Source: Carcharhinus amblyrhynchos
Taxonomy: Eukaryota
NCBI GenBank assembly: GCA_965287045.1
Contig: OZ336876.1
Location: forward strand, 38,812,001-38,876,000
Reading direction: 5' to 3'
Length of the DNA: 64,000 nt
In this document: piece by piece, positions 21,290 through 52,410 of the stretch
Layout of the letters: every line of letters begins with the position of its first letter
Numbering within the stretch: the first letter of the stretch is position 1
Made by a program: the position numbers and the translations under genes
The notes under the pieces: generated by a model
Database searches by the model: none
What the model was told of the DNA's origin: nothing
The model's input: only the letters and a program-made list of their open reading frames with translations

Positions 21290-22392
21290 AAACAACAATG
21301 TTGTGAATGTAGCCTAGTCTATCATGCAAACCAGCTTCCCACCCATTGAACGTACACATCCTGCTCCCTCAGAAAAGCAGCCAGTGTAATCAAGGACTCC
21401 ACACACCCGAGACATACTCACTTCCACCTTCTTCCATTGGGAAAAAAATACGTAAGTCTGAGATCAGGTATCAACCAACTCAAGAACAGTTATTTCCCTG
21501 CTGCTATTGGGCTTTTGAACGGACCTACCTTATATTAAATTGATTTCTCTCTGCACCCTAGCTATGACTGTAACGGTATATTCTGTGGTAAGTAGTCTCA
21601 CAACACCAGGTTAAAGTCCAACAGGTTAAAGTCCAACAGCTTTCAGAGCATTGCCCCTTCATCAAGTGAGTGAAGAGTTCAGTTCACAAACAGGGCATAT
21701 ATAGACACAAACTCAATTACAAGATAATGGTTGGAAAACGAGTCTTTACAGGTAATCAAGTCTTTACAGGTATAGACAATGTGAGTGGAGAGAGGGTTAA
21801 TCACAGGTTAAAGAGATGTGAATTGTCTCCAGCCAGGATAGTTAGTAAGATTTTACAAGTCCAGGCAAGTTGTGGAGATTACAGATTATGTGACATGAAC
21901 CCAAGATCCCAGTTGAGGCCATCCTCGTGTGTGAAACTTGGCTATCAGTTTCTGCTTAGCAATTCTGCATTGTTGTGGGTCGTGAAGGCCACCTTGGAGA
22001 ACACTTACCCGAAGATCAGAGGCTGTTTGACTGCTGGTGTGTTCCCCGACTGGAAGGGAACACTTCTGCCTGGTGATTGTTGAGCGGTGTCCATACATCA
22101 ATTGTCGTAGTGTCTGCATGGTCTCCCCAATGTACCATGCCGTGGGACACCCTTTCCTGCAGCATGTTAGGTAGACGATGTTGGCCAAGTTGCAAGAGTG
22201 TGTACCATGTACCTGGTAGATGGTGTTCTTATATGAGACGATCTGGCACGTCTTGCAGAGGTTGCTGTGGCAGGGTTGTGTGGTGTCGTGGTCACTGTTC
22301 TCCTGAAGGCTGGGTAATTTGTTGCATACAATGGTCTGTGTACAAATCTTTTCACTGTTTACCAATACATGTGACAATAATAAATCAAATTA
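21290..22392 (+). mobile_element. Rex1 3' fragment split by a Penelope insertion
   Basis: Rex1 3' end 21290-21585; tail ttttcactgt...gtgacaataataaatcaaat resumes at ~22348. Confidence 0.8.
21586..22345 (-). mobile_element. Penelope-like element 3' part: GIY-YIG endonuclease plus terminal repeat
   Basis: PCHSNLCKTCQ..HSCNLANIVYLTCCRKGCPTAWYIGETMQTLRQ..GHRSTI..LPVGEH; terminal repeat shared with 41718 and 51611. Confidence 0.9.
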
Positions 22393-40352: not shown

Positions 40353-41677
40353 GTAAGAAAGGGGGATGTTGTGAAATTGCCTGCATGCCATTGTAATATA
40401 AAAGTGCTCAGCGGAGCAAGGGTTAACATGAGACTGGGGAAATCATACTGCCTACTATATAATGTATAGAGTCACATGATAAGAAACTGGAGGAACAGTC
40501 TTGACAGAACCTCCAAGTATGCTGCCTACCTGCGTAGAAGTAGCATCGTGCATGACTATACCTTGGATCTCTGAATAGTCCGATACTACCAGTAAATGTT
40601 TCATGCTTAAATATACAAGTATCAACATCTCTTCATTGATACATCCAAACAACCCATAATACAACATACAGTGGCAATGGATAGTACCCATATTATAACA
40701 AATATTATCCATTCACTTTTATCTGGGATGTGCTATCAACAGCGGCTGTTGGGAATAAAAGTTCAGTTGTTGAAAAAACATGAGAAGATTTATAACCCAT
40801 TCAGGCAACAGGAACATTTAATATGGATCATTGAGCTTGTTCTTTCCACATTGCCACACTATTTCATTTGCTGCCATGTGAAACCTTCAAAGAAACTGGA
40901 GCTGTGATGTCTGAATCAGCAATGATCTGCTTTACTATGGTTCATAGCTCAGATTTGTCCTGGGAGTCAGCGATTGTTTGGTCGCAGGTTTGTAAAGTGG
41001 GAGCTGTTTAAGATCTGTTGAAGTTTATTTTGATTGACAATGTTGGAACCTGGATCTACCTGCACTGAGTCTAAGGATAGCATGGTGTTGTTGGACCTGC
41101 AATCTCGCAGCTTATTGCTCTCATTTTATTTTGGATTTAACTCTGGCATTTTGGGAAAATAATTTTGCTACTTAATTTTTATTTCACAATTGTTACTTGC
41201 AAGTACTTACAATTTTAAGAGGGGAACAAAGCAGCATGTTATACTTCTGTTTAAACTCTTGACAAGCCAGCTTAAATAAGGATAATTATACCTTGGAAGA
41301 TGCTATGAGTGAGAGTATACAAATGCTCAGTACGTTCATTTTAAATTCCTCCCTCTGCTGTTGTAAAACAGGTGTTAGCCCATTTAAAACAAACAAACTA
41401 ACAAGCCAGTTAAAATAGTGAAAAGAGCACACTTGTTACAAGATTGTAAATAGTTCTTATATTCTTATGTGACATTACTCAGGATCATCTTATATTTATG
41501 GGTTCCGGAAAATCTAAAGCAAAACTTTGACGTTTTGCTCACTTATTTATCACCCATTTCAGTACATATTGAATCAATGGGAGTGTGATAAATGGTCATA
41601 TTTTGAGATTACCATGCTTCAAGATTTCAACGTGGCAGCTGGAGAATTTGAATAAAGTCCCGACAGTGCAGAAGTAG

Positions 41678-41887
41678 TGATGATGTGGAGATGCCAGCAT
41701 TGGACTGGGGTAAGCACAGTAAGAAGTCTCGCAACACCAGTTTAAAGTCCAACAGGTTTATTTGGCAACACGAGCTTTCAGAGTGCTGCCACTACATCAC
41801 TCACCCAATGAAGGAGCAAAGCTCCAAAAGCTCGTGCTACCAAATAAACCTGTTAGACTTTAACCTGATGTTGTGAGACTTCTTTCT
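41678..41887. mobile_element. Fold-back non-autonomous Penelope-derived element with 12-bp TSD, nested in SINEs
   Basis: TSD gtgcagaagtag at 41666-41677 and 41888-41899; inverted arms around ~41795; same family as 51611. Confidence 0.85.
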
Positions 41888-42689
41888 GTGCAGAAGTAGG
41901 CCATTCAGCCCATCAAGTATGCATCAACCACAATCCCACCCAGCCCCTATCCCCATAGCCCCACATATTTACACTGCTAGTCCCCTGACACTAAGTGGCA
42001 ATTTAGCACGGCCAATCAACCCAATCCGCACACCTTTGGACTGAAGAACCAAGTAACTGAAGAACCAAATAATAAATCTGGAATAAAGAACTGGCATCAG
42101 TAAAATAAACCCATGAAGGTGTCATTTTATCATAAAGTCCAACTGGAACAAATCATCTTTAGGGAAGGAAACCTGCCATGCTTTTACAGAGTTGGCTGGA
42201 TTATATGTGAGAGCGGGTTCCCAGTACCTAAATGTAAATGTTGGGAGCCAGCCCGCCTCCGCTTGGCTTGAGGGATCTACTTTGATTTTTCGTGCGACAG
42301 CCCCAAGCAGAGCTTGCGTTTGTCTCCAGGAAGAAGATCCATTTCTCCAGGAGCAGGACTCGTCTCAAAGAGCTGCCAGCTGATCAGGTGGATAGCAGCT
42401 CTTTGCCAAGCCAGGGTTGATGGCCAATATTCTCAGGACAGCTGGGACAGAAAGCAAGTGTGAAAGCCTGAAACTGGGATCTATCTGGGGTTGGTTGGCA
42501 GGCCCCAGCGAGGGAGGGCTGTTTGAACAGGATGGACATGGTGGACGGACATGAGACTCATGTGTGGAGAGGGTTTTAATTGGCCTAGAGATCCAGAAAG
42601 GAGACAACCTTCCTCTTCACTAACCAGCAACTCGTAGGTTTAAACCTACTGGGCTTCATTCTGGCCAATCAAGTGGGCTGCTTTGACCT

Positions 42690-50890: not shown

Positions 50891-51610
50891 TTCCTTTCAA
50901 GCTTTCATTATTGCAGCCATCCAGCCCAATCCATCTTCTCTTCTCAGTCTGTATAGTTACTGGCTAGCGTTTTTGAAATGTACTAATAATGACTAAGAGT
51001 TTCAGACTCTTCCATCCAAGTTTTAGTTGACTGTTCCTTCTTTGTAAGTCAGTTGACCTCTCACGCTTTTCTGTTCTTTTCCTGCCCACTGCTGAGGACT
51101 TGCGATTGCATCACAGCATCAATGCTCAGTTGGGAGCTTGACTCATCTTTTCATTCTACTTTTCTGTGCAAGGCACTGCCTATGTATTTTTATCAGTAGC
51201 AATATTGATTTTAGTAGCAATTCATAGCCTAGTGTTGTTTCTGGCTGTTTCCTGGGAGCACAACACAGTAAGATAGTGGATTTGGTAGGGCCTGAAGATT
51301 GATTTGTACTGATTGATGTGAAAAAATGCCAGTACTTGGAGTGAAATGCTTTTTTAGTGAGCATTTAGTATTCCTGAGTTCAGTATGTCAGATGCAGGAT
51401 ATATTTCCATCAATACTAGACTGTTTTAAACGCAATTATGGGTTCATTAAACCCAATGTGCAAATATAAAAATGTTCATTTCCATATCATCCTTCAGGTG
51501 TTTGAGTCACTGTCAGTTCAATAGTTTTGAACTTACACTCACTAAGAGCTGCGAGGGAATCCTTGCAGCTTGTTTTCATCACACCAATTTGAGCTGCATT
51601 TGCATACAAA

Positions 51611-52022
51611 GTAAGAAGTCTGACAGCACCAGGTTTAAGTCCAACTGATTTATTTGATATTAAACTCACAAGCTTTCGGTGTTTCTCCCTTTGTCAGGTG
51701 AATGGAGAGTTCTGGCCTCAGACAGAGCATATAAAGCACAGTTTACAGATTAGTGATTAGAATGCGAGTCTTTACAACTAACCTGACTAACTAACAACTA
51801 ACTAAAGATTCGCATTCTAATCAGTAACCTGTAAACTGTCTGTGCTTTATATGCTCTGGCTGAGGCCAGAACTCTTCATTCACCTGACGAAGGGAGAAAC
51901 CCCGAAAGCTTGTGAGTTTACTATCGAATAAATCGGTTGGACTTCAACCTATTGTTGTCAGACTTCTTACTGTGTTTACCCCAGTCCAATGCCGGCATCT
52001 CCACATCATGACTACTATCGAC
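51611..52022. mobile_element. Fold-back non-autonomous Penelope-derived element with ~165-bp inverted arms and 12-bp TSD
   Basis: Arms 51610-51774 and 51803-51971; TSD tttgcatacaaa at 51599-51610 and 52023-52034; arms homologous to the PLE terminus at 21586-21750. Confidence 0.9.
51881..51914 (+). ncRNA. Minimal type I hammerhead ribozyme motif (Penelope-type)
   Basis: cac-CTGACGA-a-ggg(agaaac)ccc-GAAA-gc-TT-gtg: both core boxes, helix II, palindromic AAGCTT, helix I cac/gtg. Confidence 0.72.
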
Positions 52023-52111
52023 TTTGCATACAAAACCAGGAGTGAGAAGGCTGTGTTCTGCTGGGGTATCATTGTTTGTGGTGTTTGGCATTATTGTTTT
52101 CTGAAAGTGTT

Positions 52112-52410
52112 AAGTTTAAGTATTAGTGTCACAAGCAGACTTACATTTAACACTACGATGAAGTTACTGTGAAAATCCCCGAGTCACTACACGCCAGCAT
52201 CTATTTGGGTACACTGAGGGAGAATTTATCATGGCCAATGCACCTAAACCAGCGTGGCTTTTGGATTGTGGGAGGAATCCAGAGCACCCGGAGGAAAACC
52301 CACACAGATACAGAGAGAACGTGAAGATTGCACACAGACAGTGACCCAAGCTGAGAATTGAACCTGGGTCCCTGGTGCTTTGAGGCAGTAATGCTAACCA
52401 CTGTGCCACA
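52112..52410 (-). mobile_element. HE1-type SINE, tail variant 2
   Basis: Reverse complement of the 48367-48627 family. Confidence 0.87.

Follow-up and report, generated by a model that had tools for sequence, protein, structure and literature searches.

The 64,000-nucleotide stretch of Carcharhinus amblyrhynchos DNA analysed here, which we call the window, carries a 412-bp insertion at positions 51611–52022. It sits between two identical 12-mers, TTTGCATACAAA at 51599–51610 and a perfect copy at 52023–52034, which form its target-site duplication (TSD). Both had been picked out correctly by an initial annotation of this DNA, which took the insertion for a mobile unit of its own with paired hammerhead ribozymes. 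That annotation also gave the insertion two arms of about 165 bp each. The arms are inverted, as it said, but they are not equal. The left arm (51611–51785, minus strand) is an inverted, 5′-truncated copy of the 3′ end (pLTR) of a Penelope-like element (PLE); it has no tail, extends 180 nt into the parent (positions −180 to 0 of our reference copy, L144) and is 88% identical to full-length L144. The right arm (51803–51970, plus strand) is a direct, 5′-truncated pLTR copy, extends 169 nt into the parent and is 89% identical to L144. Arm against arm, the complementarity is 91–92%; over 164 nt the two differ by 14 mismatches and a single 4-nt gap. What had been described as a short CTAA-rich spacer is there and can be refined to a 17-nt filler (51786–51802) in which short CTAA-type stretches of the adjoining arm are copied again, including a 9-nt match to that arm. 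The tail, put at about 50 bp, is one-sided and 52 nt long (51971–52022, plus strand; 26–49 nt in the family as sampled on contig C1). Its last 15 nt (52008–52022, plus strand) are the first five codons of the parent ORF, MTTID, and the ORF of L144 starts identically.

An inverted, 5′-truncated copy, a one-sided tail and a TSD make up the insertion layout of an EN+ PLE, and all are present in these 412 bp. The layout is already published (PMC3846280, PMC8557442 and PMC4209133). In units of this type, such as Pen2a_Av from Adineta vaga (PMC3846280; scheme in PMC8557442, Fig. 2), an inverted 5′-truncated copy likewise lies by a direct pLTR, a one-sided tail runs into the ORF start and a TSD surrounds the whole. 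Their tail is 30–40 nt rather than 52 nt, and, unlike them, our insert has no ORF body because both of its copies are truncated inside the pLTR. The window holds a second fold-back at 41667–41900, older, about 210 bp long and from a related subfamily, with its tail on the left, a 12-bp TSD (GTGCAGAAGTAG) and hammerhead cores decayed in both arms.

The parent element

We looked for the source in the 2.92-Gb genome by a protein search with fragment 21920–22344, working from the best 150 of 45,031 candidates; eight loci with long open frames and six long inverted pairs were fetched. The arm and tail of the insert are 85–92% identical to the pLTRs of the long-ORF copies encoding a reverse transcriptase (RT) and a GIY-YIG endonuclease, which bears out the Penelope origin first proposed. 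L144 runs inverted pLTR, direct pLTR, tail, ORF, pLTR, tail, TSD. The parent ORF matches Pfam RVT_1, an RT domain, and contains the motifs DKG and YIDD, a CX4CxxC linker and VYL..C..C..YIG, in which two cysteines stand between VYL and YIG. Pfam returned no endonuclease match on the long-ORF copies themselves, and a PDB sequence search with the endonuclease region gave 0 matches; PF01541 is present in homologues of the parent ORF, of which the closest with a name are shark proteins. The insert, then, is the pLTR of a one-ORF element with RT followed by a GIY-YIG endonuclease, as in EN+ PLEs. The passages of PMC8557442 on clade assignment give criteria for Neptune and Nematis based on the linker and the endonuclease cysteines. 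In one copy, L142, the linker CHSNLCKTC and the GIY-YIG region VYLIRCKKGCPEAWYIG agree with the CX2-5CxxC and CCHH patterns given there. On these criteria the parent would be placed in Neptune or Nematis.

Four copies (L142, L143, L144, L145) have open frames of 785–921 codons, and long fold-backs such as L147 and L148 show 94–100% mutual identity to L144. Together, the long frames and high identities suggest that the family may have been active recently. The window itself contains a separate 5′-truncated Penelope-like fragment at 21586–22345 (minus strand), comprising the endonuclease end and pLTR, whose family had been named as the mobilising source of the insertion. It is a poor candidate. 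The fragment is 68–70% identical to the insert arms, against 85–92% for the long-ORF copies, and about 76% identical to those copies, and its frame is broken by stops. We rejected it as the direct parent; it is an older, more distant relative.

Two hammerheads on opposite strands

The right arm contains a hammerhead with a complete core at 51878–51917 (plus strand), with a stem I of 6 bp, the core CUGACGA, a bulged A and then GAAA-GC-UU; stem II is 3 bp plus an A·C mismatch. Cleavage is predicted after 51911, the position given originally. The left counterpart (51664–51703, minus strand) reads CUGACAA, having lost G8 (G8>A at 51692). That loss had been spotted, but not that stem II is weakened to 2 bp. 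Judged as minimal type I hammerheads (CUGANGA/GAAA/NUH with stems I and II), the right arm passes and the left arm fails on G8>A.

Taken alone, the core pattern is weak evidence for a hammerhead and close to chance: the window has 2 matches where 0.61 are expected, and 12 of 100 shuffles reach 2. The folding z-score of the right hammerhead is only −0.66. The initial annotation had suggested Rfam models as a check; a scan of 51400–52300 reported no hammerhead family, and generic hairpins were the only matches, all below threshold. We assign a hammerhead because the family keeps the core, in 162 of the 249 hammerheads in fetched loci, and because stem II covaries. Its second pair is G-C in 116, A-U in 107, G-U in 7 and unpaired in 7 of 237 copies, counts that stand for few events and not hundreds because the copies share ancestry. 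This family covariation supports, as first proposed, a minimal type I hammerhead in the right arm, with cleavage activity predicted. One intact and one mutated hammerhead amount to ordinary decay, since both G8>A (32 of 249, the same change as in the left arm) and G12>A (38 of 249) are common in the family; the loss of G8 is common CpG decay, as had been suggested.

The features shared with metazoan PLE pLTR hammerheads, as described in the relevant sections of PMC4209133, are the type I form, a bulged base after A9, the G10.1-C11.1 pair, a palindromic GC at 15.2–16.2 and no helix III. Stem II is shorter here (3–5 bp in the family), and activity is predicted in our case. Across the family stem II comes in no fewer than twelve or so co-existing variants of 3–5 bp, which recombine with flanking variants, a diversity that agrees with the high variability reported for PLE hammerheads.

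The idea that the two hammerheads are functionally paired did not survive. Because one is on the plus strand and the other on the minus strand, no single RNA can contain both as a dimer; any transcript would have one core together with the antisense of the other. Minimal hammerheads require a partner on the same strand and remain weak even then, according to PMC4209133, which also mentions opposite-strand pairs 100–700 bp apart. When two 40-nt copies of our hammerhead were co-folded, the outcome was a stem-swapped dimer, not the helix III of a double hammerhead, a result that carries no weight either way. The other structural prediction, that a transcript would form a long hairpin, fared better. 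With its inverted arms the whole insert has a predicted minimum free energy of −261 kcal/mol, and in the predicted ensemble 97% of the right hammerhead is taken up in pairing with the left half. If the whole insert were transcribed, the intact hammerhead is predicted to be buried in the hairpin. Both hammerheads are passengers from the parent pLTR.

Fold-backs across the genome

A 23-mer from the tail has 23,950 exact matches in the genome, and a subfamily 21-mer has 9,328. We sampled them twice. The first sample took tail sites in order along contig C1 and yielded 78 unique sites, 49 of which are fold-backs, that is, have an inverted arm. These range from 31 to 1,062 bp (median 147), with only one within 340–380 bp, and a TSD of 10–16 bp flanks 43 of them. 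The second sample was family-specific. Of 100 places listed for it, 90 were fetched, giving 89 usable sites and 83 after removal of duplicates, about 20 of them overlapping the contig C1 sample. Here 52 of the 83 are fold-backs, with arms of 24–1,150 nt and a TSD of at least 10 bp in 45; at the other 31 tail sites the fetched DNA shows no inverted arm next to the tail. Arms reach 2.7 kb in selected long copies. The counts exclude segmental duplicates, loci fetched more than once and L294, where the fetched DNA was from the wrong side.

The first 6 Mb of contig C1, the contig's end, is rich in segmental duplications, for many insertions recur there with identical flanks (L032/L044, L033/L039, L034/L040/L051/L055, L036/L042/L052/L056 and L232–L235). 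By eye, many flanks in the tail-anchored samples from this contig resemble pieces of another LINE. Three insertions (L050, L053 and L054) have tail sequence on both arms, the direct arm continuing into the ORF start, and L050 and L053 have common breakpoints.

Searched as a 32-nt string with up to 2 mismatches, the central junction of our insert has a single match in 2.92 Gb, itself; its filler occurs in no other insertion, and this search of the genome found no copy with the same centre but other flanks or TSDs. Family-wide we counted 157 different junctions among about 163 insertions, and the few repeats sit on microhomologies. The initial annotation had named in advance what would tell against its mobile unit, namely fold-backs without a common structure, and this continuum of sizes and junctions is what we found. 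Of 101 junctions, placed from BLAST ends and hence accurate only to within a few bases, 38 overlap at a microhomology, 5 are blunt and 58 have filler, of at least 5 nt in 36. The 412-bp hairpin thus has many thousands of counterparts in the genome, all of them truncated Penelope leftovers.

Arm ends do not pile up at the predicted cut (−58): in the family-specific sample 4 of 104 fall at 50–59 nt. Eighteen of the 104 fall at 60–69 nt, an excess that the variable stem II may have produced as an artefact of alignment. A possible transcription start lies at −101 to −106, where 13 of 84 ends fall in the mixed contig C1 sample and a weak 6 of 104 in the family-specific one. The TATA-like TTTATAT at 51846–51852 lies about 25 nt upstream of pLTR position −103, the region where some arm ends cluster, and could mark a promoter or start site.

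How the palindrome may have formed

How PLEs come by their inverted repeats is called unresolved in the passages of PMC8557442 and PMC3846280 that raise the matter. We consider it very probable that our insert is the doubly 5′-truncated 3′ end of an RT/GIY-YIG PLE, laid down likely in one event with both cut target strands acting as primers. The element's endonuclease would nick the target with a 12-nt stagger, which would become the TSD. Each 3′-OH would then prime a cDNA on RNA uncut at the insert's hammerhead, beginning at either of two sites; the tail would be on one arm only because the two cDNAs begin at different sites. Both copies stopped early, after 169 and 180 nt, as the arms themselves record, and end-joining repair would have linked the two ends, leaving the locally templated filler. 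Such filler may be akin to the products of polymerase-theta repair. The copy has since decayed, as the mismatches between its arms show. As two-strand priming predicts, the 3′ end of the element is found at both ends of the insert, with the two truncated 5′ ends facing each other at its centre. Most probably, the fold-back is a dead end.

Several of these steps have a counterpart in Poseidon PAc of Anolis carolinensis. According to the in vitro data in PMC11167929, the anole protein cuts and extends both strands, two internal starts delimit the tail, and uncut RNA is preferred; shared with our insert are the tail, an internal start at the pLTR–ORF junction and a template hammerhead left uncut. 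The anole element belongs to a different clade: our parent ORF has the CX2-5CxxC linker, absent in Penelope/Poseidon by the clade criteria of PMC8557442, and the sections of PMC11167929 drawn on here do not explain inverted arms.

A further parallel may be L1 twin priming, where both target strands prime and a microhomology joins one cDNA to the other. The 3′ end is not repeated in the inverted part of an L1 copy, whereas here both arms copy the same 3′ end and a palindrome results.

The alternative that deserves the most attention starts from the same dead Penelope stump and differs in how the mirror arm arose, through snap-back self-priming of a single strand followed by trimming of the hairpin centre. 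It has been put forward before, as a hypothesis in a passage of PMC3846280 (Arkhipova et al. 2013), and some of our data are comfortable with it. Certain junctions are palindromic, such as a 64/64 junction on AAGCTT. Arm lengths correlate in both samples (rho 0.74, n=42, contig C1; 0.49, n=52, family-specific), and snap-back copying, too, predicts this correlation and the mostly shared sub-variant. Arm asymmetry is harder for it. Among 52 family-specific fold-backs, the non-tail arm exceeds the tail arm by more than 10 nt in 24 (the reverse holds in 8), and it is the longer in our insert too; copying one way from the tail arm cannot yield this, and copying from the non-tail arm is unable to supply the tail. 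Post-insertion deletions at palindrome centres could produce both asymmetry and microhomology. Scored at 30 non-CpG diagnostic sites in 96 insertions, the arms of one insertion differ in 58 of 1,190 comparisons (4.9%), against 38.8% for shuffled pairs and 2.4% at constant sites. Fewer than three sites are discordant in 87 insertions, which suits snap-back, but at least three are discordant in 9 of the 96, where a null model averages 1.1 such insertions and never exceeds 5 in 5,000 simulations, although discordance could stem from gene conversion and polymorphic sites may be more mutable. In L031 the discordant sites spread across about 270 nt. One junction used in both polarities (169/196) and the mix of overlapping, blunt and filler junctions count for two primers as well. 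Since neither arm is always the longer and the arms of 9 in 96 insertions are discordant, we favour two-strand priming, sometimes on a second template, and regard snap-back as unlikely.

The original proposal, a non-autonomous, self-cleaving fold-back unit copied whole in trans by the Penelope protein, we now find highly improbable. PLE pLTRs can mobilise other sequence in trans, in an account within PMC3846280, a few junctions recur, and the 40 best genome matches to the whole insert are all fold-backs of about 400 bp. That size is explained by their selection for similarity to the query; the unbiased samples show a size continuum, and among 26 insertions of about 400 bp from the best whole-insert matches the centres differ. 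The family has no shared length or centre, and so no amplified unit. The recurrent junctions are microhomologies found in different sub-variants; at the 169/196 junction, also a microhomology, the copies carry different stem II variants and the tail is on the short arm three times and the long arm twice. The opposite strands of the hammerheads and the predicted burial of the intact one tell against the unit as well. The sections of a preprint on non-LTR animal retrozymes (bioRxiv 10.64898/2026.07.22.740005) define these elements by consecutive units on the same strand. Our insert shares with them a non-coding, pLTR-derived nature and a type I hammerhead. Theirs are head-to-tail tandems with same-strand hammerheads and a family consensus unit; ours is head-to-head, with one core per strand and no shared unit, and lacks the two or more consecutive units of a retrozyme. 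As for an assembly artefact or a chance palindrome, the perfect TSD, the diverged arms, thousands of relatives and contigs from three other organisms running from left flank into left arm leave it practically no credence.

If both strands prime, the templates come into question. Six insertions (L031, L010, L015, L189, L195 and L201) have arms with different linked subfamily variants and are candidates for two templates; the arms of our 412-bp insert differ at 1 of 6 diagnostic sites and by the 4-nt gap. We estimate that a second template may have been used in roughly 7–11% of insertions. A bolder and more tentative idea, on balance doubtful, is that the PLE integrase is a two-RNA machine: the two nicked strands would be copied from separate RNA molecules, which would mostly stem from one source element and in that 7–11% from two; if true, it would settle the origin of inverted pLTRs. 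The literature we searched, with most subscription journals, Repbase and Dfam outside its scope, held no shark Penelope palindromes and no two-RNA priming by PLEs.

The insert is real but an ordinary, dead Penelope stump, and such debris should not enter catalogues as a new mobile RNA. The value of the family is as a natural archive of how insertion works: the genome has at least 23,950 tailed ends and several co-existing sub-variants, and arm asymmetry and haplotype can therefore separate two-primer from snap-back models. The contigs of the three other organisms are 2–5% diverged in the flank, and in one of these organisms contigs also span the tail, TSD and right flank; because they enter or cross the insert, the insertion likely predates the split from all three. 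Directly to its right, at 52147–52410, lies a repeat of about 260 bp and very high copy number, which we take to be SINE-like.
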